Assembly: GCA_963677595.1 (NCBI GenBank) | Contig: OY782041.1 | Coordinates: 2,880,001-2,944,000 of the forward strand | Direction of reading: 5' to 3' | DNA length: 64,000 nucleotides | From: Spirochaetia bacterium | Lineage (GTDB): Bacteria > Spirochaetota > Spirochaetia > CAKZLE01 | In this document: piece by piece, positions 1-13,700 of the stretch | Layout of the letters: every line of letters begins with the position of its first letter | Numbering within the stretch: the first letter of the stretch is position 1 | Translations under genes and position numbers: made by a program | Notes under the pieces: generated by a model | What the model saw: only the letters and a program-made list of their open reading frames with translations | Told to the model about the DNA's origin: nothing | The model's database searches: none

Positions 1-19
1 TGAATTCCATCATTCTCGA
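1..19 (+). repeat. Left att-like direct repeat (copy of ssb 5' coding sequence)
   Basis: TGAATTCCATCATTCTCGA is identical to 11832-11850 inside ssb (within codons 4-10). It diverges immediately after and may extend upstream of the window. Confidence 0.85.
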
Positions 20-454
20 CGTAAGAACAAGTAAATATTTACCAAATAACGAGTTAACTAGGTGTGGCTAAGCAAATTTTGGTGGTGGCTAGTAGGATTA
101 TCTGATGCAACCTTTTGCCACAAACTCATGCTTTGCTTAGAGATAATAGGGTATAGGAAAATAACAGAAAAGGGTAGCGGCTAAGAAGTTTATGGGGATT
201 TGCCACATCAAAACTCATACATCATTTATGAATGATATTGAATCTTGAGAATAAACTCTTTTGTAAGGCTAAATATAATGGGTAGTGGCTGAAACGAAGG
301 AGTTATTGATATTGAGAGTACTGACAGGTTTGTTGGTGGATAACGAGTTTCTTGGATTGATTTCTTCATGAGGTTGTTATACTCTATCTGTAAATGAGTA
401 AATAGTTCTATAACGTAACTCTTTATAAAGTGTATGGGATAAAGTGGGGGAACT

Positions 455-3400
455 ATGCTCAAAAGAACTCAAGTCGTATTTATCATACTGGTATTAGCTT
501 ACATATTCAGCTCAATCAGTTGTGATCTACTAAACGGAATCTTAGATTCTACAGGAACAATAACTGGAAAGGTTACCTTTTCTAATAGTTCAGACCATGC
601 AGGCATAGTTATCTCGTTAGAAAGTAAAGAAGGTGAGATCACAAAAAGTGTATCTCATGCTCTGCAGGGTGATACTAGATCCTTAACATCTCGATCTTTA
701 TCCGATCAGACAACCACCAATTCAAATGGTGAATACCAATTTATCGATGTACCTGAAGGGGATTATACCCTGTATGCATCTTCCCAGGATTCATCAGAGA
801 AAGCCGTCTATACCTCAATCCATATTGATAAAGGTAAAACAGTCACTGCCCCTGATCTGCAACTTACTTCTGTAGGGAGTATTCATGGAAGAATCGTGTT
901 GGATGGAACAGCGACTGGGAATATTGGTTTTATAATTTTTATTGCTGATACTTCCTATATGGCAATTACAGGAAATGAAGGGAATTTTACCATATCTGAA
1001 GTTCCCTCTGGAAATGATTATGATCTTGTTATTATGCGAGGTACAGATACTTATAGTTGGGATAATGTATCCGTATCTGCGGGCTCCATAACAGAACTGG
1101 GAACAAAATACTTATTATCAGAAGATTTTCCTGGAAGTATTACTATCGCATGGCAGGGTTCACTGGATGCTCCCCCGGTTAACCCTGAACTCTATTGGGC
1201 ATACTACAATATGACTGATGGTGTCTCATATCTCTATACGGGAAATGGTGAGTGGCAAGTCCTCGCGCAAAATGGTGAAGACGGATCTGCTGGTGAGACA
1301 GGAGCTGCCGGAGCAGACGGGATCTCGATTATCTGGAAAGGTGGATATGCTAATGTGGCAGATATGTTGGCCGCATTAGGGGTAACCAAGCCAGAAGAGA
1401 ATTGGGCATACTACAACAGCACAGATGGGATTTCGTATATCTATGATGGATCAGACTGGAACATCCTTGCCCAGGATGGATCAGATGGAGCAGATGCTAT
1501 ATCGATCATATGGCTGGGAGAGTACAGTAGTGCACCGAGTGGAGCAAGCCTGAACAATGCCTACTATAACACCTCAAATGGTAATTCTTACATCTACAAC
1601 GGTAGTTACTGGGATCTGTTGGCACAGGCAGGATCAGATGGTGCTGATGGAGAGACAGGGGCAACGGGGGCAGCAGGAGCTGACGGTATCTCGATCATCT
1701 GGAAGGGAGAGTTGACTGAAGCGCCGAGCAGTCCTGAGGTTAACTGGGCATACTACAACAGCACAGATGGGATTTCGTATATCTATAATGGATCAGATTG
1801 GAATATCCTGGCGCAGGATGGAGCCGATGGAAGTGATGGAGTTGATGGTGCAGATGGTGCAGATGGTGTATCAATCGTCTGGCTGGGCGAGTATAGCAGT
1901 GCGCCAAGTGGAGCAAGCCTGAACAATGCCTACTACAACACCAGTGATGGGAACTCATATATCTATAATGGCAGTAGCTGGGACTTGCTGGCAGCGGCAG
2001 GTGCAGATGGAGTTGATGGTGCTACAGGTGCAGATGGGGCGGACGGGATCTCGATTATCTGGAAGGGCGAGCTTACGGAAGCGCCGATCAGTCCTGAGGT
2101 TAACTGGGCATACTACAACAGTACCGTCGGAATCTCCTATACCTACGATGGAAGTCAGTGGAATATCCTGGCCCAGGACGGATCAGACGGAGCGGATGCG
2201 ATATCGATCGTATGGTTGGGAGAGTTTAGCAGTGAGCCGAGCGGGGCAAGCCTGAACAATACCTACTACAACACGAGTGATGGAAATTCCTATATCTATA
2301 ACGGAAGCAGCTGGGACCTGTTGGCAGCGGCAGGGGCAGACGGAGCTGACGGTGAGACAGGGGCAGCCGGTGCGGACGGGATCTCGATCATCTGGAAGGG
2401 AGAGTTGTCTGATGCACCGAGTGACCCTACAAATAATTGGGCATATTATAATATAGTTGATGGTATTTCTTATATTTATGATGGATCAGACTGGAACATT
2501 CTGGCCCAGGACGGATCAGACGGAGTGGATGCGATATCGATCGTATGGCTGGGAGAATCCAGTAGTGCACCGAGTGGATCGAGCCTAAATAATGCGTACT
2601 ACAATACGAGTGATGGGAATTCATATATCTACAATGGCAGCGACTGGGACCTGCTGGCAGCGGCAGGGGCAGATGGGGCTGATGGGGAGACTGGAGCAAG
2701 TGGAACCGATGGAATATCAATTATCTGGAAGGGAGAACTTTCTTCAGCACCGAATAGTCCTGGAGTTAATTGGGCTTACTATAATAGTTCTGATAAAAAG
2801 GCTTGGATATGGAGTAATAACTCTTGGAATTTATTAGTTAATGATGGGAATTCATTATTGTATATTTCTTTTTATAATAATAATGCTACTAGTGGATATT
2901 TACCTGAAACTATTTTTGGATATGAAGGAGATCAATATGGAGTACCCCAAAATTCAAGAGGATTAGAAAAAGTGGGGTATTCTTTCTCAGGTTGGAATTC
3001 TAAATCTGATGGATCTGGAGATGATTATATATTAGGATCATACTATATGTTTAGTAATGAGTCATTAAGACTTTATGCACAATGGACTCCAAATAACTAT
3101 AAAATCTATTTAAATGTCCAAGGTGGGGATCTCCTTGAAAATGATTCTTTGGTAGTTACTTATGATTCGTTTTATGGAGACCTACCAACTCCTACAAGAG
3201 CTGGATACAATTTTGATACATGGTGGATTGATACCGAAATTACATCTACAACCATTGTTAAAATACCATATAATCATGTTATTGACGCTCATTGGATACC
3301 TAGAACTGATACAAAGTATCTAGTTGAACATTATCAACAGGATGTGAGTGGGGATGGATATACCTTGGTTGATTCTGACATCCTGACCGGTACGACAGAA

Positions 3401-5035
3401 GCTACAGCAACAGCTGAAGTAAAGGCATACACTGGGTTTCATGAAAATCCAATCCATGAATTGCGAGTGTCTAGTGGGGAAATAAGAGGAAATGGATCTC
3501 TTGTTTTGAAACTTTATTATGATAGAGATAACTTTACCGTAAGTTTTAAAAGTAATTGTAACAGTATTGTTGATGATATTGAAGGTGTGAGATATCAGGC
3601 AACAATAAGTGAACCAGAGTTACTAACAAAAATTGGATATACTTTTAACTATTGGTATAAAGATATTTTTTCTTGGACCCCCTTTAATTTTTCATCAGCT
3701 CAAATAACTAGCGATCTTATATTAACTGCTAATTGGTCCGCAAATACTGATACTCAATATAAAGTAGAACATTACCAACAAGACATTTCTGGACCTGGGT
3801 ATACATTATTTGAGACAGAATATTTAACAGGTACAACCGATAGTGAAGCGCTGGCATACTCGAAATTCTATTATTATTTTAGAAATACTAATGATGATAT
3901 ATCCATCTACCGTAGTAACATTTATGGCGATGGGAGTTTAGTCCTGAAGATATATTATTACCGTAACACTTATACAATTAGTTATAATAGCAATGGTGGT
4001 TCTATTATTGAGGATATGGAAGCACGGTATGATTCCACACTGAATGAACCAATTCCTACAAGAGAAGGGTATACATTTTCTGGTTGGTTTAAAGATGATG
4101 ATCTGACTACAACTTGGGATTTTAGTAGTGAAAAGATAGAAAGAGATATTTCTTTATATGCCAAATGGACTGCAGATGAACATACTTTGTATTTATTACC
4201 AAATGGTGGAATTGGTACAATGGATTCAATTACTATTAAAACTAATGAGAAAATACAGTTGCCAATTTGTAGATATACTCAAGAAGAATTTGGTTTTTAT
4301 GGCTGGTCTGAGACAAGTCAAGGTGAAGTCGATTATAGTGATGAAGGATTCTTTACAATGGGACCTACTGATGCTGAACTATATGCAATTTGGGGACCCT
4401 TTGCAGTAGGTTTTAGAGGTCAAGCTGGCGGATATATTTTCTATGATGATGAAGCCGATGGTGTTGATAATATACCTGGTTATCGTTTTCTGGAATTAGC
4501 TCCTTTTGGGTGGTATGACACCGATGGGGATGGAGAATATTGGGAAGATCCTGACCCTAGACTTTTTCAATGGGGAGTTAATGGGTATTATATAACACCA
4601 AATGGAACAGCACCTGAAATTGGTGCTGGCTTGACTAATACTATAAATATTGTAAATTTTCATAATAATTTAGGGACAGAAGGTTATATTGGATATGATG
4701 AAGGTTGGGGTAGTTTCTACGAAAATCCACAAAACTATTTTAGAATGAATGATGGGAGTGTAATTGCTAAAATATGTACTGATGCCGTAATTAATGGGTA
4801 TGATGATTGGTATTTACCTTCAATAGATGAATTAAAAGAAGTATCAAAACAATTATACTCAAATGGAAAAGATAATTTTGTAGAGCTATGGTATCGATCT
4901 TCAACAGAAAATTCTACCACAACTGTAAAGTCAATATGGATGGAATATGATGTCATAAATGAATATACCGAATTGTCTCATGGCATGTTTAAGTATTTTG
5001 ATCTTTACCCATTTCGACCAATTAGATATTTTTAA
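455..5035 (+). CDS. Large surface lipoprotein/adhesin: carboxypeptidase-regulatory-like domains, collagen-linked Trp/Tyr repeats, InlB B-type repeats, C-terminal DUF1566-like domain
   Basis: Signal peptide with lipobox-like SISC; G-X-X linkers (GADGADGETG); PTREGYTFSGW...LYAKW repeats; GYDDWYLPSIDEL...RPIRYF C-terminus. Confidence 0.85.
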   Translation: MLKRTQVVFIILVLAYIFSSISCDLLNGILDSTGTITGKVTFSNSSDHAGIVISLESKEGEITKSVSHALQGDTRSLTSRSLSDQTTTNSNGEYQFIDVPEGDYTLYASSQDSSEKAVYTSIHIDKGKTVTAPDLQLTSVGSIHGRIVLDGTATGNIGFIIFIADTSYMAITGNEGNFTISEVPSGNDYDLVIMRGTDTYSWDNVSVSAGSITELGTKYLLSEDFPGSITIAWQGSLDAPPVNPELYWAYYNMTDGVSYLYTGNGEWQVLAQNGEDGSAGETGAAGADGISIIWKGGYANVADMLAALGVTKPEENWAYYNSTDGISYIYDGSDWNILAQDGSDGADAISIIWLGEYSSAPSGASLNNAYYNTSNGNSYIYNGSYWDLLAQAGSDGADGETGATGAAGADGISIIWKGELTEAPSSPEVNWAYYNSTDGISYIYNGSDWNILAQDGADGSDGVDGADGADGVSIVWLGEYSSAPSGASLNNAYYNTSDGNSYIYNGSSWDLLAAAGADGVDGATGADGADGISIIWKGELTEAPISPEVNWAYYNSTVGISYTYDGSQWNILAQDGSDGADAISIVWLGEFSSEPSGASLNNTYYNTSDGNSYIYNGSSWDLLAAAGADGADGETGAAGADGISIIWKGELSDAPSDPTNNWAYYNIVDGISYIYDGSDWNILAQDGSDGVDAISIVWLGESSSAPSGSSLNNAYYNTSDGNSYIYNGSDWDLLAAAGADGADGETGASGTDGISIIWKGELSSAPNSPGVNWAYYNSSDKKAWIWSNNSWNLLVNDGNSLLYISFYNNNATSGYLPETIFGYEGDQYGVPQNSRGLEKVGYSFSGWNSKSDGSGDDYILGSYYMFSNESLRLYAQWTPNNYKIYLNVQGGDLLENDSLVVTYDSFYGDLPTPTRAGYNFDTWWIDTEITSTTIVKIPYNHVIDAHWIPRTDTKYLVEHYQQDVSGDGYTLVDSDILTGTTEATATAEVKAYTGFHENPIHELRVSSGEIRGNGSLVLKLYYDRDNFTVSFKSNCNSIVDDIEGVRYQATISEPELLTKIGYTFNYWYKDIFSWTPFNFSSAQITSDLILTANWSANTDTQYKVEHYQQDISGPGYTLFETEYLTGTTDSEALAYSKFYYYFRNTNDDISIYRSNIYGDGSLVLKIYYYRNTYTISYNSNGGSIIEDMEARYDSTLNEPIPTREGYTFSGWFKDDDLTTTWDFSSEKIERDISLYAKWTADEHTLYLLPNGGIGTMDSITIKTNEKIQLPICRYTQEEFGFYGWSETSQGEVDYSDEGFFTMGPTDAELYAIWGPFAVGFRGQAGGYIFYDDEADGVDNIPGYRFLELAPFGWYDTDGDGEYWEDPDPRLFQWGVNGYYITPNGTAPEIGAGLTNTINIVNFHNNLGTEGYIGYDEGWGSFYENPQNYFRMNDGSVIAKICTDAVINGYDDWYLPSIDELKEVSKQLYSNGKDNFVELWYRSSTENSTTTVKSIWMEYDVINEYTELSHGMFKYFDLYPFRPIRYF
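1139..2848 (+). repeat. Intragenic array of ten ~45-aa modules separated by collagen-like linkers
   Basis: Alternating ISIIWKGEL..NWAYYN..WNILAQDG and ISIVWLGE..LNNAYYN..WDLLAAAG modules. Confidence 0.9.
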
Positions 5036-5069
5036 CATCAAAAAAAGTTTAGAGTGATAATCATCAGCC

Positions 5070-5245
5070 GAGACTGGAAACTTAACTGTGTAACTGCCTA
5101 TTCCCATCAATCTACAATCCTATCTTCATATTCGGTGAAGAAACCGATTCATCGCTGGACCCCAATCCCTGATTGGCATGGTCCAGCGCCGTGAGGCCTG
5201 CTGAACAGCCAAATACACGATCTTCAAAGTTGGTGTGTCATGATC
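5070..5245 (-). pseudogene. IS256-family transposase C-terminal remnant with right end
   Basis: LKIVYLAVQQASRRWTMPIRDWGPAMNRF resembles the IS256 C-terminus; followed on the minus strand by TTACACAG...CAGTCTC end-like sequence. Confidence 0.75.
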
Positions 5246-5645
5246 TATTCCACCTACTATCAACATAACACTTACGGCAGCAGTATTTTCGACCTTTCCC
5301 GTAAGCGATGAATGTCTTACCGCAATGCTGGCATACAACGCTATAGGTAGCTCGTTCAACTCCTGATTTCAACTGCCCGAATCGGTTCCACCAATTATTG
5401 ATCTCCACATTAAATTAAAGCAAAACTGACGAATAGTTTTAGCAAGAAAAAACCGTAACATGGCATGACTGCTTGTGTATGAAATATTGCCTCCAGCTGA
5501 GAAGAAGCGCCCATACCAAGGAATCCACCATGCATCTGCAAAGACTTTCTTAGAATTAATCACACATGAGTTTCATAGAATTATTCTACGTAGACATTTC
5601 AACAATCATGTAGGATGAACAACCGATTCGGCAATTGTTTGAACA

Positions 5646-5670
5646 CAGCTCCCACCGGTAGTAGGAGCTG
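5646..5670 (-). terminator. Hairpin downstream of transposon operon
   Basis: CAGCTCC...GGAGCTG stem just after the ORF4 stop. Confidence 0.4.
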
Positions 5671-5702
5671 CTGAAGGGCGAGTAATCGGGTCGTTGTGAG
5701 TA

Positions 5703-6050
5703 TCAGCTGGAGAAGTCGAATTCCTGCTGGATTGGTGAATCAGCGGTGGTTGTATCTGTCAACCACAGATGGGGGACGATCACTTGGCAAATCTGAGTGA
5801 ATAGCCTGCTGAGTGAATCGTCAAGTGTGGAGAAATAGGAACGATACAGCCAATGCAGCCCTTCAGGGATTCCTGTAACATGCAGGAGCTGATCCTCAAG
5901 TTCAAGAAATGCTACGGACAGCTGTTCCAGGGTTTCTATGGTACGGGAAACAGTCCTGTAGGCGGCTCTATCATCCTGTTCAAGCGTAGTAAGGAGCTGC
6001 TCAAGATCAAAGCCCTGTGTAGATGGAACGATCACGGTATTCATCAGCAT
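5703..6050 (-). CDS. Hypothetical helical protein, fourth gene of transposon operon
   Basis: ORF overlaps the ATPase stop; ends QQEFDFSS; no family recognised. Confidence 0.6.
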   Translation of the reverse strand: MLMNTVIVPSTQGFDLEQLLTTLEQDDRAAYRTVSRTIETLEQLSVAFLELEDQLLHVTGIPEGLHWLYRSYFSTLDDSLSRLFTQICQVIVPHLWLTDTTTADSPIQQEFDFSS

Positions 6051-6865
6051 TGCCACCACTCCTTTGTCACGATCCGAATTACCTCAGGGGTAATGACCTG
6101 CAATTTCTCATCCATGCCATGTTTCAGGGCTAGTAAGCAGATGGTATTGATGTTTCGCGGGATACCGCCTGAAGCCTGGGTAACGGCAATTACTGCTTGG
6201 GAAGAGAACAAGTCCTCCTGTCCTCCGGCAACTGTGGTCATGTGGTGTTTGACATACTCAATACATTCCTGCTGAGACATGCTCCGAAGATTATATCCAT
6301 TCATGACCCGATTCATCAGTGGCCTGGCATAGGGATTGCGCAGCTTGTCGAACAGGGTATCCTGCCCACACATGACGATGGGCAGGATTCTGCTGTCATT
6401 GGGATTCTGCTGGCAGAGGAGATGGAGTTGCGAGTAGACACTCGGCTTGAATAGGTCGCACTCATCGATGAACAGCACCGGGCTTCGGCCATCGGCACGA
6501 ATCTGAGAAAAAGCCTCATAAAGCTGCTTGAGCATGGTCGTCTGCTGGTTCGTTCGTGCCGAGATCCCGACGGCATGCATGCATTGCCTGAGCATCTCCG
6601 TGAAGCTCCAGGAGCCGCCACAGATGTGGATGACCTGGTACTGCTTCTTTGACAGCTGACTGATGGTATACCGCAGGGCTGTGGACTTTCCAGACCCTAT
6701 CTCACCGATGATCGCGAAGATCATGGCATGAGCGATAGCGAAGACACAGCGCTCACTGATCTCGATCATGGAGGTAACGGTATACAGCTGATCAACCGGC
6801 ATGTGGCTGGCAAAGGGCTGACGCTGGAAACCATAGTAGGTCTTGATGTCATGATTCTTATTCAT
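6044..6865 (-). CDS. ExeA-like AAA+ ATPase (transposition helper)
   Basis: YYGFQRQPF N-terminus, Walker A GEIGSGKST, Walker B LFIDE, GGIPRNIN. Confidence 0.9.
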   Translation of the reverse strand: MNKNHDIKTYYGFQRQPFASHMPVDQLYTVTSMIEISERCVFAIAHAMIFAIIGEIGSGKSTALRYTISQLSKKQYQVIHICGGSWSFTEMLRQCMHAVGISARTNQQTTMLKQLYEAFSQIRADGRSPVLFIDECDLFKPSVYSQLHLLCQQNPNDSRILPIVMCGQDTLFDKLRNPYARPLMNRVMNGYNLRSMSQQECIEYVKHHMTTVAGGQEDLFSSQAVIAVTQASGGIPRNINTICLLALKHGMDEKLQVITPEVIRIVTKEWWQC

Positions 6866-8112
6866 CGCACACCTCCGGTGGTGGCTGCCGGCAGCTCTTG
6901 ACGGTGCGCCTGTGAATTAGCAATCTGATCACAGAGCGGAAGGAATCCAAGAGAGGTATCTTCATAGAAGGCTTCTACATGTGCCGGGTCAGAGAATCGA
7001 AGATCGAGGGTGAGGCCAGCATAGCCGAGGGGAACCTCATACAGATGATTGTTAAGACTAACCGTTCGTGCTAAGGACACTTTCCTCTTCACGTGAGACC
7101 GGAAATAAGGCAGCATCTCTGGTGGAGCAGGTCTCACGGCCTCGATCTCCTGAAGATACACCTGTAAAGGGCTATCCTGGATGCCTGAATGAAATCTTCG
7201 ATTGTACTGCTGCAGGTAGGTCATCCAGGCTTTGTTGAGCTCATAGAGCGAGATAGGGGACGTGCCGATCGTCGGGAGAAACTGCATGCGAACCGTTGAG
7301 AAGAATCGCTCGATTTTTGCCTTCGATGCCGGCGAGTACGGTTTCGCGAAAGATAGCTGAACCTGCAGAGATGCCAATCCAAGTTTCAGTCGGTGGTCTC
7401 TCATGGCCGAACCGTGGTCCGTGAAGATCTTACGGGGTAACCCCCGTGCGGAAAAGGCTTTGATAACGCAGTCGATCAGGCTCTCTGCTTTTTCGTCTGG
7501 ATAGAACTGGGCATAGGTAATGAGCCGGCTCTTGTCGTCAATGAGCGCCCACAGCTTTGCGGAGATCGTTTTCTCCCCTCCGGCGACCATGATGGTGACC
7601 TTTGGACCATTCATCGCATCCAGCATCCAACAGTCGTTGCAGCTGGCCATGCTGAATCGCCGCATGTCTTTCGTCCGTTTTGCCGTTTGATCCCGATCAT
7701 AGGATTTGAACATCCGATAGATCACTGACATCTTCACCGTTTCATGGGGAAGGAAGATCCCTTCTTTGATCGCCATCGCTACCAATGTCGTGAGCTTTAC
7801 CTCGGGATGCTGATCACGGAAATGCCGCAAAGCTACTTCCGTCTCACTGCTTACGCTTCGATGATGCCCCTTGTCTTCGCGAGATGCAGGATACAGATCT
7901 TCGATCTCTTGATGCTGGCTATACCGTCGAAGCCAGTTATACACCGTCGCTTTGCTGATGCGAGTCCTCTCGGAGAAGGGAATCTCATACGATTCTGCAC
8001 AGATCTTCTCGACGATCTGGCTCTTCTCTCCCCATTGCAGACGCTCATCGAGCAAGGGGAAGATAATGCCGAATCGAAACAATGCGATCTTCTCTTGTTT
8101 CATCCTGTCCAT
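6862..8112 (-). CDS. DDE integrase/transposase (rve core, Mu-like C-terminus)
   Basis: IALFRFGII N-terminus, HTH, WMLD, LIDDKSR, IFTDHGS, KAKIERFFSTVR; AGGAGG RBS before ATG 8112. Confidence 0.9.
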   Translation of the reverse strand: MDRMKQEKIALFRFGIIFPLLDERLQWGEKSQIVEKICAESYEIPFSERTRISKATVYNWLRRYSQHQEIEDLYPASREDKGHHRSVSSETEVALRHFRDQHPEVKLTTLVAMAIKEGIFLPHETVKMSVIYRMFKSYDRDQTAKRTKDMRRFSMASCNDCWMLDAMNGPKVTIMVAGGEKTISAKLWALIDDKSRLITYAQFYPDEKAESLIDCVIKAFSARGLPRKIFTDHGSAMRDHRLKLGLASLQVQLSFAKPYSPASKAKIERFFSTVRMQFLPTIGTSPISLYELNKAWMTYLQQYNRRFHSGIQDSPLQVYLQEIEAVRPAPPEMLPYFRSHVKRKVSLARTVSLNNHLYEVPLGYAGLTLDLRFSDPAHVEAFYEDTSLGFLPLCDQIANSQAHRQELPAATTGGVR

Positions 8113-8141
8113 GGTTACCTCCTGATAGTTGGTTAGGTATC

Positions 8142-8723
8142 TCACAGCCTATCGTAGTCACCGGAAGATATGCAGAACAGAAACTGGTAGGCAGCCCCCG
8201 GAGGTTTGAAGGTTCGCACCTCCATAACCCCCTGAAGCGGCTTGGTGACCATTCGAATGGAGAGAGGAGCCGTGATACAGGATCTTGGGCAGGAGAGCTC
8301 CTGCAGGTCGAATCCCTTCAGGTGGTACAGGTTCTCCTTAATACTTGCTCGTTTGATCAGGTGATCTCTCCACTGTCGTTGAAGCGTCTTGTTGATGGGG
8401 ATGTGGTTCCCCATATGTCCGGTTTCACACGCTGCAGAGAGTACGGCTAAGATGGTTTCAAGGCTATAATTCTTGAATACATGTACCCAGATGGGCAGTA
8501 ATGTAAAGGTGAGAAAACACTTAGGGCACCGTTTCCTATGGATCCAGAAGCAGTACTCCTGTTTCTCGAGATCAACGAGGAAACGAAGCCTCCAGCCATG
8601 ACCATGCAGGATCGTGCCACAGCAGGGGCAAGTCATACTGGGCATGATACCTACATCTGGAGGATCAGAACAGGGATTCTGGACTTGAACTTTTTCGAAA
8701 TCTACGTCAATCTGGATGAGCAT
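8142..8723 (-). CDS. DUF6431-like zinc-finger protein
   Basis: CPCC...HGHGWRLR...RKRCPKC..TFTLLP..YS pattern, typical upstream of DDE+ExeA pairs. Confidence 0.75.
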   Translation of the reverse strand: MLIQIDVDFEKVQVQNPCSDPPDVGIMPSMTCPCCGTILHGHGWRLRFLVDLEKQEYCFWIHRKRCPKCFLTFTLLPIWVHVFKNYSLETILAVLSAACETGHMGNHIPINKTLQRQWRDHLIKRASIKENLYHLKGFDLQELSCPRSCITAPLSIRMVTKPLQGVMEVRTFKPPGAAYQFLFCISSGDYDRL

Positions 8724-8872
8724 TTATTGCATGTGAGGAGAAGCGCACATCTTTCCAGGGACGGTGCTTCTCCTCTTTCCTTTTTACGAGAGTTCCTCTA
8801 TTTTACCACAGATTATTCGCTCTAAGAGATTGTGTGATTTTCTAGCTTATTTTTACTAAGATAAGTTACAGG

Positions 8873-10744
8873 TTAATACCAATCCTGTCGGCACCCATCA
8901 GAGCAGAAGATCTTCTTTCTATAGCCTGGGGTATGCACAAGAGGCTTCCCGCATGTTTTGCAATACCCCGATTCTCCTTGTTGGGAAGTTGTGTTCTGGT
9001 CTGATGTCCTGGATAAACAATACGATCGAACCTGCCCCTGCGTGAGGTTCATGCGGGATGCGATCTTGTTATACGATATGCCTTCTCTGCGGAATTCAGC
9101 GATTTTCTTTTTCTGGCGAACGGTGAGGGCAGGGAGTTTCTTTTCTATTGCAGCCTTATCCACTGTGATAATTGAACCATCACAGAAATGGAATCGCACA
9201 TCATGTGGAGAGTAGACCGTGATAAAATCCAGTAATGCATTCCAAAGATCAGAGTTGAATGTGGTTATGGGTTCCTTAGAATTCTGCAACTCATCATAAA
9301 ACTGGGTGGCTACATGTTTCTTCTCTACCTTATCTGCAATAGCTTTTTCTAACTTTTGAAGTCGTTTGGAATCTTTCTTGAATCGTTGCTGGAGAACCTG
9401 ATACTCTCCCTCAGATGCTGTGGGTGTTTCAGACTCTTCTGATTCTGCTGCTTCTCGGGCCGCCATGGTTTGCATCAACTCTGTTGTGACAGCTAGGTCT
9501 ACTTGCATTTGATCACGTTCTCTTTCAAGAGCAGATGTATCGAATAGCAGTTCATAGGTGAGTTTCTGGGTTTCGAGAATCGTTGGGGCGCTCTTGAGAA
9601 CTCGGTTCACGGCGATCACGAACATGCTCATGATATCCCGTTCAGTTACGTTCCCTGAAGTGCATGGTGCATGGGATGCATCGTACTTGCCATTACATTG
9701 CCAGAGGATCTTCTGACTGCCGGTATGTGGATGCCAGGTTTTCTTCCCAAACCATGAACCGCATTGACCGCATTTTACTTTCCCCGATAGCAGTCGTTCA
9801 CGATTATGTCGTCCTATCAATCCTTTCCGTCGTTCGAGTTCTGATTGGACGAGTTCGTATATGTCCTTGCTGATAATCGGCGTATGATTTTTCTCTACAT
9901 AGTATTGCGGGACTTCCCCTTCGTTATCTTTCAACTTATGGGTGAGAAAATCCACCGTGAACTTCTTCTGCAGCAGTGCATCGCCAATATATTTTTCATT
10001 CTGGAGAATTCGGGTAACACAGCCATCGTTCCAGGTTGTTTTCTTCCCCGGGGTAGGGATTCCCTGTTCGGTGAGTTTCACTGCAATCGAGGAAGGTGCG
10101 ATACCTTGGAGAAACAGGGAGTAGATAAGCCTCACCGTCTCAGCTTGTTCTTCATTGATCACGAACTCTCCGTTCGGTCCTCGATCGTATCCAAGGAATT
10201 GACCATATGCGACACTGACCTTACCGGCTTTTGCAAGTTTCCGCTTACTCCAGGTGACGTTCTCTGAAATCGATCGGCTTTCTTCCTGAGCGATAGAGCT
10301 CATGATCGTGATCAGCAGTTCTCCCTTTCCATCGAATGTCCAAATATTTTCCTTCTCGAAGAAACACTCAACGTGGTTCTTTTTCAGTTTTCGGATGGTG
10401 GTAAGGCTGTCTACCGTGTTTCTAGCAAATCTACTAACTGACTTCGTGACGATCAGGTCAATCTTACCGGCTAGGGCATCCGCTACCATCTGTTTGAAGC
10501 CCTCTCGATGGGTTGTAGTGGTGCCGCTGATCCCTTCATCAGTATAGACCTGTACGAATTCCCAATCTTGACGGCTCTTGATGTAGTGTGTGTAGTAGTC
10601 AATCTGTGCCTTATAACTCGAGAGCTGTTCATCATGATCAGTTGATACCCGGGCGTATCCGGCAACACGTCGTATATGGGTTCTCCTCCCGGTATCCCTC
10701 GCATTGATGTTTTTGGTTGCTGGTATGGTTCTAATGGTTGGCAT
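8873..10744 (-). CDS. Large serine recombinase with fused C-terminal HTH and Zn-finger module
   Basis: RVAGYARVST catalytic motif, DEGISG, TKSVSRFARN, recombinase domain YIGDALLQK, Zn ribbon CGQCG; extra QKKKIAEFRREG..VRSYC and CKTCGKP..KKIFCSDGCR tail. Confidence 0.93.
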   Translation of the reverse strand: MPTIRTIPATKNINARDTGRRTHIRRVAGYARVSTDHDEQLSSYKAQIDYYTHYIKSRQDWEFVQVYTDEGISGTTTTHREGFKQMVADALAGKIDLIVTKSVSRFARNTVDSLTTIRKLKKNHVECFFEKENIWTFDGKGELLITIMSSIAQEESRSISENVTWSKRKLAKAGKVSVAYGQFLGYDRGPNGEFVINEEQAETVRLIYSLFLQGIAPSSIAVKLTEQGIPTPGKKTTWNDGCVTRILQNEKYIGDALLQKKFTVDFLTHKLKDNEGEVPQYYVEKNHTPIISKDIYELVQSELERRKGLIGRHNRERLLSGKVKCGQCGSWFGKKTWHPHTGSQKILWQCNGKYDASHAPCTSGNVTERDIMSMFVIAVNRVLKSAPTILETQKLTYELLFDTSALERERDQMQVDLAVTTELMQTMAAREAAESEESETPTASEGEYQVLQQRFKKDSKRLQKLEKAIADKVEKKHVATQFYDELQNSKEPITTFNSDLWNALLDFITVYSPHDVRFHFCDGSIITVDKAAIEKKLPALTVRQKKKIAEFRREGISYNKIASRMNLTQGQVRSYCLSRTSDQNTTSQQGESGYCKTCGKPLVHTPGYRKKIFCSDGCRQDWY

Positions 10745-11639
10745 GAGGTTTCTCCTTGGCTTGGTGTGTACTTGCGGCTATTCGAGCTCGATGCTTTGCA
10801 TCCCAGAACTGGGTATGAGTTCGTCCATTCGTGAAATGGAAGGTAAAGGTCCCATCACCGCTTCCGGTGATATGATCCACTTCTCTCGTGAAGGCATCTT
10901 CGTTAAACGCTTCATGTTTCATCTCGAAGGCTGAGAGCTGTTTTAATTGCTCTTCGTTGATCCCGATGCTCCTACAGCCCGTTGGTCCATATTTTTTGTT
11001 TGATGCACATCGCCAGTTTGCATTGGTGGGTGTCTTGTAAATCCTGATATACTTCCTGCCGCATTTCTCGCAGCTGATCTTCCCGGTAAAACACCGTTTG
11101 ACCATCTTCGGCATGATGAATACGCCGAGCTCTTTTCGTCTCGTTATCTCTGCAGCTACGGCATCAAAGGTCTCTCGACTGACAATCGCCGTATGGGTAT
11201 CTGATATATAGTGCATTGGGAATTCCCCTGTATTCTTTTTGCGCTTATGCTTCATGAAATCCGCACAGTAGGTTTTCTGGAGTAGGGTATCCCCGATATA
11301 TCGTTCATTGTGGAGGATGGTGTGGATTGCGACATCATTGAAGGGTTTTTCGAAGTGATCTACTTCCCGCTTATTCAGATCATCTGAGATCCTTTTCATC
11401 GATTTCCCTTTCAGGTAGTGCTTGAATATGCTTCGTACTACCCGTGCCGGTTTCGGATCTATGACCAGCTTCTTACCATTCCAGCGATATCCATAGACTC
11501 GATGGTTCAAGCTGATTCCCTGCTCATATTTCTTCCTCACTGCCCATCTGAGGTTCTCAGATATACTCCTGCTTTCCTCTTGGGCGAAGGTCCCGAGTAT
11601 GGTGACCATGAGCTCATGAGACAGGGGCATAGACAGCAA
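10731..11639 (-). CDS. Large serine recombinase lacking the N-terminal catalytic domain
   Basis: Begins near ELMVTILGTFAQEESRSISEN; has recombinase and Zn-ribbon domains; no YxRVS upstream, and an in-frame TAA precedes it. Confidence 0.8.
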   Translation of the reverse strand: MLSMPLSHELMVTILGTFAQEESRSISENLRWAVRKKYEQGISLNHRVYGYRWNGKKLVIDPKPARVVRSIFKHYLKGKSMKRISDDLNKREVDHFEKPFNDVAIHTILHNERYIGDTLLQKTYCADFMKHKRKKNTGEFPMHYISDTHTAIVSRETFDAVAAEITRRKELGVFIMPKMVKRCFTGKISCEKCGRKYIRIYKTPTNANWRCASNKKYGPTGCRSIGINEEQLKQLSAFEMKHEAFNEDAFTREVDHITGSGDGTFTFHFTNGRTHTQFWDAKHRARIAASTHQAKEKPHANH

Positions 11640-11821
11640 CTTGAAATGGAGTAGGGTGCGCGTGTTGTGGGAAGTCCTACGATAGATGAGCCCCTTCCTG
11701 GACGTTTATGCGTCTTTTTGCCTCTTTGTTTCAACTGTCATGACAAATACCTCGGATTCTTGAATCAAATCCACCCAAATCATGTTTATAACTTATAGAT
11801 AGATACAAGGAGGCATAAGCC

Positions 11822-12226
11822 ATGAACAATCTGAATTCCATCATTCTCGAGGGGAACCTGGTGCGAGACCCAGAGCTCAAGATGACCCAGAGCGGGACCA
11901 ATGTCTGCAGAATGCAGATCGCCACGAACCGGTACTACCGGAAGGGCGAGGAGCAGGTCAAGGAGGTCATGTATCTCTGTGTCGAAGCCTGGGCGAACAC
12001 GGCCCTAATCTGCCAGGAGTACCTGGGCAAGGGGAGCTGGGTGCGTGCCGTGGGGAGGCTCCGACAGGATCGGTGGAAGAACCAGGAGGGACAGAACCGG
12101 GAACGGTATGTCCTGGTCGCCGAGCATGTGGAGTTCCGCTCTCCCCTGAGGAAGCAGGAGGAGGAGGGGACCCCCGAGAGTGTCGCTGCTGAGGCGCAGA
12201 AGGTCCTCTCCCCTGAGAAGGGCTGA
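11822..12226 (+). CDS. ssb: Single-stranded DNA-binding protein
   Basis: MNNLNSIILEGNLVRDPEL, GRLRQDRW, VAEHVEF; AAGGAGG RBS. Confidence 0.93.
   Translation: MNNLNSIILEGNLVRDPELKMTQSGTNVCRMQIATNRYYRKGEEQVKEVMYLCVEAWANTALICQEYLGKGSWVRAVGRLRQDRWKNQEGQNRERYVLVAEHVEFRSPLRKQEEEGTPESVAAEAQKVLSPEKG
11832..11850 (+). repeat. Right att-like direct repeat within ssb
   Basis: Identical to positions 1-19. Confidence 0.85.
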
Positions 12227-12706: not shown

Positions 12707-12741
12707 AAGGGGTGGGTACCGTATGCGGCCCACCCTTTTTT
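12707..12741. terminator. Terminator between convergent genes
   Basis: AAGGGGTGGG...CCCACCCTTTTTT. Confidence 0.65.
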
Positions 12742-13700
12742 CATTCATACACTTCATCACTGTTCACCTCCCCGAATGTGGAACCCGAGGTCGGTACCGT
12801 ATGCCAGTCAGCTGCTGAATCCGTGTCCTTCGGTACAGAAGCACGGCAGGCGGACCTCGTGGCCGTGGTCTTCGTGGACCGTACCGCTCCCTCCGGCTTG
12901 AGTGATCCCCAGGCCCCTTCCCCTACCAGATACTTCACCTTCTCAAGCATCAAGGTGCTCCCGAAGCCCTGGTACTTCTCATCAGAGTCGCTGAACCGGT
13001 TGGAGTAGACGACTGCATCCATGAGGTTCCCGCTGCAAGAGGTATAGAGGCTCAGGACCCCGTTGTTCCCGGAGAGCCCGACAGGCTCTTCCATGGAGAA
13101 CTGGCGTTCAGCATCGAATGCCTCCGGGGTATCCGTGCAGTGGATGATGAGGTACTCCCCCTTCGTTACCTCCAGGGCGGGGAGGATGCACTTCTGCCGG
13201 AAGTCACCAGCAGTCCCGTCGAAGAGGCAGACTCCTGCGGTGTTCCCGGCAGAGGTGACGTACAGTTCCACCGCGTCAGGATGCCGCTTCGACCCTTTCG
13301 TGGTGAACTCGTTGATGATCATGCCGGGAGGGGAGGGGTTCCACCCGTAGACTGACAGGTACGCCATCGAGGAGTTCCCGGCAGTGTCGCAGATCCTCCC
13401 GGTAAGTTCATATACCCCTCCCGGGATGAGTTCCTCTGCGGTCGTGAGGCGAATCGTCTCATCTGTGACGATGATCCCCTCCAGGGTGATGTCCTCCCCA
13501 AGTGAGAACGTGTCGGCATCGGCTTCTGCGGCTTCGCTGCAGGTGATCGTGATCTCCCGCACTCCAGTGGCTGAACAGCTCAGGATAAGCGGTGGGGTGG
13601 TATCCTGTGAGGATACAGCCTGGTAGGCCGCGATCGGGGTGCAGCCTGAGCAGGCGGCGAAAAGAAACAGGGATGAGATTAAGATGGCAATGGATTTCAT
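12741..13700 (-). CDS. Lipoprotein with Ig-like and lamin-tail-like domain
   Basis: Lipobox-like FAAC, DTTPPLI, D-AGNS, MIINEF...DAVELY. Confidence 0.7.
   Translation of the reverse strand: MKSIAILISSLFLFAACSGCTPIAAYQAVSSQDTTPPLILSCSATGVREITITCSEAAEADADTFSLGEDITLEGIIVTDETIRLTTAEELIPGGVYELTGRICDTAGNSSMAYLSVYGWNPSPPGMIINEFTTKGSKRHPDAVELYVTSAGNTAGVCLFDGTAGDFRQKCILPALEVTKGEYLIIHCTDTPEAFDAERQFSMEEPVGLSGNNGVLSLYTSCSGNLMDAVVYSNRFSDSDEKYQGFGSTLMLEKVKYLVGEGAWGSLKPEGAVRSTKTTATRSACRASVPKDTDSAADWHTVPTSGSTFGEVNSDEVYE

Follow-up and report, generated by a model that had tools for sequence, protein, structure and literature searches.

A 64,000-nucleotide stretch of DNA from a Spirochaetia bacterium (assembly GCA_963677595.1), hereafter called the window, corresponds to positions 2880001-2944000 of contig C1, forward strand, in the source genome G000, which is a single contig of 4.33 Mb. 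At the left end of the window lies a ~12-kb island that is inserted at codon 10 of a second paralog of the gene ssb and that carries two genes of large serine recombinase (LSR) ancestry, designated LSR1 and LSR2. The island is flanked by a direct repeat, which was read together with the genome sequence upstream of the window; negative coordinates denote positions upstream of window position 1. The features of the locus, in window coordinates unless stated otherwise, are as follows.

1..19, plus strand: last 19 bp of the left 204-bp repeat copy; the whole copy spans window -184..19 (genome 2879816-2880019) and contains a minus-strand LSR1 5' remnant, the promoter, the ribosome-binding site and ssb codons 1 to part of 10
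18-19: crossover dinucleotide GA of the left copy
20..59, plus strand: element arm of attL (P'), with a 13-bp motif at 47-59
455..5035, plus strand: predicted surface lipoprotein/adhesin of 1526 amino acids (aa), with a CarboxypepD_reg-like domain, collagen-like repeats and three Listeria-Bacteroides repeats
5703..8723, minus strand: insertion sequence (IS)-like four-gene module
5703-6059, minus strand: 118-aa open reading frame (ORF) of the module
6044-6865, minus strand: AAA ATPase of the module
6862-8145, minus strand: IS481-like DDE transposase, scoring below the family cut-off
8142-8723, minus strand: DUF6431 gene of the module
8873..10744, minus strand: LSR2, 623 aa, with Resolvase, Recombinase, Zn ribbon and C-terminal helix-turn-helix (HTH)-like domains
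10731..11740, minus strand: LSR1 pseudogene, 5' limit approximate
11647..11850, plus strand: right 204-bp repeat copy, identical to the left copy over 11756-11850
11760..11788, plus strand: bipartite promoter-like motif TTGAA(T/G)CA-N15-TGTTTA, a predicted competence promoter
11807..11813, plus strand: AAGGAGG ribosome-binding site
11822..12226, plus strand: intact second ssb paralog, 134 aa, without a DDIPF tail, SsbB-like
11849-11850: GA of an intact attB, with ssb sequence on both sides

A first-pass annotation of this DNA had noted that the 19 bases at window 1-19 recur at 11832-11850. This match is exact and the 19-mer has just two occurrences in the genome, but the repeat proved much longer than described, being perfect over 95 bp and 94.1% identical over 204 bp (window -184..19 versus 11647..11850). 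Both copies carry the ribosome-binding site AAGGAGG, ATGAACAATC, and, on the opposite strand, the degenerate start of a gene for a serine recombinase. The left copy reads into the island as NSIILDVRTSK, just as annotated, and GC content within the island is 0.33-0.52 compared with 0.545 genome-wide.

The same annotation took the left copy for the native start of ssb and predicted that the native promoter would lie upstream of the window. An ssb start and promoter are indeed present there, but they are joined to their own LSR1 remnant (~75 codons, 42% identical to the LSR1 ortholog of genome G001) rather than to a native locus. No third, native ssb start was found in G000, where the search returned the two exact copies and two unrelated matches with three mismatches. 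Fusion to an LSR1 remnant marks the left copy as the end of an older element. Beyond the remnant lie a DUF4160-like frame (named by eye), a DUF2442 gene and a nucleotidyltransferase-HEPN gene, up to a potassium-channel gene. The nucleotidyltransferase and HEPN domains share one frame with a frameshifted tail (locus L038:2230-2877; window -1770..-1123), and this frame, beside the DUF4160-like/DUF2442 pair, resembles toxin-antitoxin cargo that belonged to the older element.

Serine integrases normally convert attP and attB irreversibly into attL and attR, according to the abstract of PMC5499577. The flanks of the island are instead B-P' on the left and, given the 95 bp identical to the left B side, B-B' on the right; a hybrid pair of attL (B-P') and attR (P-B') is not present. 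Nor is the displaced native gene end that would be expected at the other boundary, where the left copy adjoins the LSR1 remnant. The island is therefore not a freshly integrated canonical element. The ssb gene is whole at this locus because a copy of a host-type promoter is fused to the island end, and its start signals are adjacent to the element, as in a gene-restoring arrangement.

The canonical ssb of G000 lies elsewhere, in rpsF-ssb-rpsR, and its product ends in DDIPF. SsbB, the single-stranded DNA-binding protein of competence, is described as a second paralog that lacks this acidic tail. The gene at the island conforms to this description, being a second paralog outside rpsF-ssb-rpsR with no acidic DDIPF tail, and is a putative competence SsbB. 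Nearly all named records that hold its closest relatives are from spirochetes. Other genes around this ssb were also noted. Closely similar pairs of a hydrolase-like and a WYL/YafY-like gene (assigned by eye) immediately precede ssb in three genomes from two families (L032:12246-13789; L058, G001:C3:50196-51736; G307:C1:656106-657675), and no such pair was found in G000. Downstream, a conserved 319-aa lipoprotein-like gene (window 12741-13700) between thioredoxin and glmS-like genes is syntenic in G001, G003 and G004. One contig of G004 stops exactly at ssb codon 10 (G004:C15:33718; L007), which hints at an insertion or repeat at the same site.

The recombinase genes had been annotated as two large serine recombinases. 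This holds for LSR2, which has the Resolvase, Recombinase and Zn-ribbon domains of a serine integrase and keeps the catalytic YARVS motif, although its orthologs, at 671 and 674 aa, are ~50 aa longer. It does not hold for the 302-aa ORF at 10731-11639, which continues LSR1 after a stop and an internal deletion and has no Resolvase domain. LSR1 has a degenerate start, a stop after the VYAPVS motif and a deletion at 11615 of most of the catalytic domain; its remainder is 72% identical to the intact 427-aa ortholog in G001. Thus the recombinases of the island are, to judge from their reading frames, decaying, with LSR1 broken in both copies and LSR2 shortened.

The cargo is not essentially one giant adhesin, as had been proposed, since 5703-8723 also holds the DUF6431, IS481-like transposase, AAA ATPase and 118-aa genes; terminal repeats of this module were looked for and none were found. 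The 1526-aa product is a putative adhesin, with a lipoprotein signal read by eye. Just beyond its gene, 58 bp (window 5070-5127) match the inverted genome segment 2224926-2224983 at 96.6%, and in short-read contigs of two sequencing runs (X1 and X3, considered below) loose ends and a 3459-bp skip start near 5127-5131. The region near 5070-5131 likely marks a mobile boundary.

The comparison covered 401 genomes of the class. At a threshold of E<=1e-100, LSR2 matches occur in eight genomes at 13 places, and five of these places have matches that reach LSR2 residue 623 (G000, G001:C3, G399:C7, G319:C72 and G016:C41). At all five, LSR2 points towards an ssb 5' fragment 0.5-10.8 kb away that is cut after the GA of Glu10. 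These observations bear out the earlier expectation that attB lies within the first ~10 codons of ssb. A branch separates the five ssb-linked proteins from 19 other LSRs (SH-aLRT 100) in what is a quick tree with one partial row.

The crossover can be placed precisely in these relatives. Genomes G399 and G319, which belong to different genera, have 19,480 bp in common at 99.94%. Their exact identity begins at the GA with a run of 3095 nucleotides (nt), whereas the preceding 27 ssb bases match at 22 positions and the host DNA further out is ~69% alike. This pattern demonstrates horizontal transfer and fixes the crossover. The core is ~2 bp, the GA of Glu10, and the outer ends of the G001 element have only GA in common. 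The arms that follow the cut in G399, G319, G001 and G016 each match the G000 arm at 24-26 of 40 positions, and the 13-bp motif at +28 keeps the same offset, with identical sequence in G399 and G319 and variants in G001 and G016. Among the 401 genomes the P' pattern occurs only in its five source genomes, a circular result, and it has no match in viral contigs. LSR1 is preceded by HTH genes in G001, G399 and G319, where that part is assembled. The element body varies, being a prophage with terminase and portal genes in G001 and including putative metal transporter genes, identified by eye, in G399.

Restoration of the target gene had been proposed as the element's way of integrating. The same clade leaves ssb split in all four other genomes that carry it (G001, G399, G319 and G016), so restoration is not a trait of the family. 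More distant LSR2 relatives (best segments 45-62% identical) showed the ssb-start pattern in none of 80 metagenome and 80 viral loci; any ssb was near them at one of the 80 metagenome loci (31% identical, full length, 4 kb away) and none of the viral ones. Likewise, no LSR was found in the flanks examined of 79 named loci with this ssb, a set that favours intact genes and short contigs. These off-site relatives and the 0/79 count argue against the generality of ssb targeting.

A second recombinase lineage uses the same dinucleotide. This short LSR (342 aa, no Zn ribbon, 38% identical to LSR2) occurs in five of the 401 genomes (G001, G016, G307, G319 and G399), each of which has a copy immediately upstream of an ssb remainder, the junction again being at this GA. 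The target copy of ssb is therefore split in each. Among 14 short-LSR arms, five join the main ssb remainder, seven join the arm of the next element in tandem arrays and two join other sequence. Genome G307 also has an intact ssb upstream, whose part after codon 10 matches the remainder at 369/371 bases. Its locus (G307:C1:657826-678958; L264, L265) holds this intact ssb, a second, diverged leader and ssb start, tandem short-LSR elements and the ssb remainder, and one arm joins a foreign ssb-like fragment (EGNLVQETDD).

The arms before the ssb remainder in G399, G016, G307 and G319 (L287, L290, L293, L294) are in frame with ssb and read TTG-Y-(H/Q)-G-Q-V-V-I-E-G-N-L; the corresponding arm in G001, a base shorter, is not in frame. 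A true replacement N-terminus is thus possible in the in-frame cases. Relatives of the adhesin repeat and C-terminal domains adjoin short-LSR genes (L272:7581-12381 in G399:C5; L274:12813-13361 in G016:C36), which suggests that adhesins recur as cargo.

The first-pass annotation proposed that ssb is now expressed from island-supplied signals. The intact gene does follow signals adjacent to the island, but these are host-like: the proximal 66 bp of the leader align with the native region upstream of ssb in G001 and in the island-free G003 (scores 42.5 and 43), and none of 500 shuffles scored as high. The distal leader matches neither of these regions nor, significantly, the regions upstream of LSR1 in the orthologs. 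Accordingly, an island-free relative with the same leader, which would have argued against an island origin, is found in part: G003 has a homologous (~70%) proximal leader and lacks the distal part. The leader before ssb is, on these alignments, a predicted promoter of host type.

The leader carries TTGAATCA-N15-TGTTTA. A pattern built from ssb leaders and two first matches occurs 12 times in G000 compared with once in the reversed genome. A matrix built on six seed sites (ssb, dprA, two Rpn and two unknown genes) gave 30 matches above 17 bits in G000 versus seven in the control, where the maximum was 20.9. Unseeded matches lie 4 nt before recQ (26.6 bits) and before genes for a LuxR-type regulator (26.4), radC (20.5), comF (18.9; family assignment below its cut-off) and comEC (17.5). 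The genes behind the motif in G000 therefore include dprA, comEC, comF, radC, recQ, the LuxR-type regulator and Rpn nucleases, and sequence scans indicate that ssb shares its promoter with dprA, comEC and comF, as is fitting for an SsbB-like gene. Sites were noted at genome positions 4089731(-), 3568085(+), 3869531(-), 1097185(+), 374153(+) and 149896(-), and at eight Rpn-like genes. Several start codons lie within ~8 nt of the motif, which suggests leaderless messages.

Five relatives of the family yielded 19 matches to the pattern versus two in controls. Eight of the 19 lie ahead of orthologs from this gene set (comEC, comF twice, recQ, the regulator twice, Rpn and ssb), one of which, ssb of G003, had contributed to the pattern. 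TGAA[T/G]C[A/G] is present in the 130 nt before ssb at 27 of 71 usable loci compared with 4.2% of random windows; eight of 79 loci had been dropped for a short flank or no matched start. A version of the pattern for family f12 matched just twice in five genomes, once at its own source; evidence for the regulon is thus confined to family f1. We infer that the motif-bearing genes form a predicted spirochete competence regulon.

The left promoter copy is directed towards the island interior. It is followed by a truncated ssb frame of 26 codons (window -9..70), and the adhesin gene starts 385 bp further on, on the same strand. Neither a sigma-70-type promoter nor a terminator was found between the left leader and the adhesin gene, and the sole hairpin found lies upstream of the leader motif. 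The adhesin could thus be co-regulated with competence from the left promoter copy.

Contigs of four short-read runs were compared with the locus; X1 may be the source sample, and X3 is from another study. X1 contigs reproduce the left remnant-to-leader and right LSR1-to-leader joins with no differences, and the left join of ssb to the arm with only 25 letters on one side. X3 shows LSR1 fused to the leader and a cut at the same place, after which the arm differs at 3/30 bases. A second strain in X1 is without the adhesin, has LSR DNA and carries beside the leader an LSR1 allele that reads RDYERLEHSL, while X2 contains an undeleted LSR1 allele and an LSR2 contig from which 475 bp are missing. 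Runs of two studies therefore contain the fused end, and the LSR1 alleles there differ by 7-10%. A 98-bp leader contig in X3 has a depth of 10.6 versus ~3-4.5 for its neighbours, and depth at position 11720 in X1 sums to 172.6, of which the right copy accounts for 28.5. These excesses suggest several leader copies. The proximal 98 bp are invariant in X3, though one X3 ssb contig differs at 10/151 bases.

We hypothesize that the island is the recombinase-bearing end of the ssb-GA element family, fused to a host-type promoter and ssb start, and that homologous recombination across the 204-bp leader, and not the normal attP x attB reaction, spread and stacked it; we consider the chances of this explanation to be about even. 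Its base consists of observed features, namely the target site, the family's use of this site, the host-like proximal leader, the two fused copies and the damaged recombinases. An ancestral LSR1-LSR2 element would have integrated site-specifically and split ssb, as in G001, G399, G319 and G016. One illegitimate event would then have fused the sequences that lie upstream of LSR1 and of the ssb promoter, with loss of the element body and P arm. The resulting unit (promoter-ssb start / P' - cargo - LSR2 - LSR1) could loop out of or into an intact copy via the repeat. Each entry would leave ssb whole with a fresh attB, giving tandem units with different cargo, and the left copy would be the decayed end of an earlier unit.

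Several observations weigh against this hypothesis. LSR2 keeps its catalytic motif and three domains, and an X1 allele of LSR1 with more of the catalytic domain adjoins the leader, so the recombinases may still act. Tn4451-family serine recombinases act in both directions without a directionality factor, according to sections of PMC5704250, and the short-LSR elements stack at hybrid sites. No native promoter-ssb start / P' of a first unit remains at the left. The distal leader, tried as LSR1's own upstream region, gave no significant match (at best, 22 of 500 shuffles scored as high), and the fusion point is consequently not fixed. No P arm could be identified for the LSR-pair family; the single odd arm (G319:C25:52305) comes after a fragment of a short LSR. 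Contig depth is a poor measure of copy number and may sum several strains, and neither a circle junction nor an empty site of the species was seen in the contigs of the four runs, which drop rare forms.

An alternative that we regard as possible but doubtful is sequential knock-out and repair. Full-length elements would insert at attB in the normal way and split ssb, after which the host would regain the gene by double crossover with DNA of an older LSR1-promoter-ssb fusion, transformation being one route; LSR1 and the rest of ssb would supply the homology. The island would then be a dead scar that was never mobile. The same anatomy would result, and the decayed recombinases and absent P arm would be accounted for. 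G000 has comEC, dprA, comF and radC reading frames, G307 likewise regained an intact ssb through its near-identical (369/371) upstream copy, and removal of elements by transformation is modelled in parts of PMC4774983. However, two rare events per unit would be required, a full-length element with HTH genes at the fused leader was not seen (none in G000), and other strains show several leader copies. It seems unlikely that the island is instead an active LSR1/LSR2 element whose attP carries a replacement promoter and ssb start, such that each site-specific integration restores ssb. Both copies do stop exactly at the family's GA, the P' motif is retained, LSR2 possesses the full set of three domains, a more complete LSR1 allele adjoins the leader in X1, and tandem accretion at a site that is regenerated has precedent (sections of PMC5704250). 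But the same clade splits ssb in four of four other genomes and the recombinases are damaged; moreover, the supposed left arm of attP is 95 bp of purely host-like sequence, which makes this site an attL. Finally, genome contamination is estimated at 6.3% and no single contig spans the island. An assembly artefact or chance repeat is nevertheless highly improbable, because the internal joins are reproduced by short-read contigs, a run from another study has the same cut, and a homologous arm begins at the same base in four other genomes.

The arrangement can be compared with known systems. SCC (staphylococcal cassette chromosome) elements with CcrA/CcrB have two tandem serine recombinase genes and form composite islands at one host gene, the rlmH 3' end. 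The tandem recombinase pair and the composite island at one host gene are alike here, but the target is the 5' end of ssb. Membership in CcrA, CcrB or CcrC was tried and rejected (best NCBIfam matches of 128, 93 and 86 bits versus cut-offs of 900, 900 and 700).

Competence genes (comM/Mg-chelatase, comEC, dprA and pilin) are enriched among LSR targets in portions of PMC10083194. The first-pass annotation did not know ssb as a common LSR target, and the supplement of that study in fact lists SSB at 7/1069 target clusters versus 0/908 background (P 0.013; false discovery rate 0.065), a row that is an enrichment count only and does not specify there which taxa and ssb genes were counted. The island resembles those LSRs, as far as these portions describe them, in its LSR domain set, its target within a coding sequence, its short common core, its likely competence-gene target and the use of one site by several LSR lineages. 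It differs in that the hosts are spirochetes, one GA in ssb codon 10 is used by two lineages, and the gene is whole in G000 with attL and attB as flanks. Sections of PMC5704250 describe tandem accretion of integrative and mobilizable elements and cis-mobilizable elements at one att site and rumA targeting, and do not mention ssb. Stacked decaying elements and a 2-bp identity at the crossover, as in Tn4451-type recombinases with 2-bp cores, are common to both systems, whereas this island lacks relaxase and conjugation genes and owes the regeneration of its site to the capture of a promoter and gene start. Elements in comYC, comFA, comK, comM and comEC are covered in parts of PMC4774983, the main text of which has no match for ssb. 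The prophages in comYC, comFA, comK and comM are likewise mobile elements in a transformation gene conserved across genera, but competence of the spirochetes considered here is only predicted. A literature search, with subscription papers and bioRxiv supplements mostly outside its scope, found nothing on the ssb codon-10 site or the regulon.

The island thus behaves as a competence-gene-targeting LSR island with tandem accretion, and is neither a canonical attL/attR element nor a Ccr member. That LSRs strike competence genes and stack in tandem was already known, as was ssb as a minor LSR target; the spirochete hot spot, the predicted competence regulon and restoration by promoter capture are new. 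They provide a precisely mapped attB for two unstudied spirochete LSR lineages, usable in integration tests, and a testable promoter motif for the predicted regulon, none having been found described for this group. They also bear on the conflict between elements and transformation, with two natural restorations of a target gene, by promoter capture here and by gene duplication in G307. Under the hypothesis of leader recombination, the lineage would keep the competence-regulated SsbB that parent elements knock out. More tentatively, and with rather less confidence, free-living spirochetes may possess an undescribed natural-competence regulon, with promoter TTGAA[T/G]CA-N15-CTGTTTA, that comprises dprA, comEC, comF, radC, recQ, ssbB, Rpn nucleases and a LuxR-type regulator. 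Two LSR lineages would knock out its ssbB at a single dinucleotide, and the lineage of G000 would have converted one element into a self-restoring landing pad equipped with the competence promoter. If so, cargo such as adhesins would stack up without loss of DNA uptake, and it may be transcribed from the left promoter copy.

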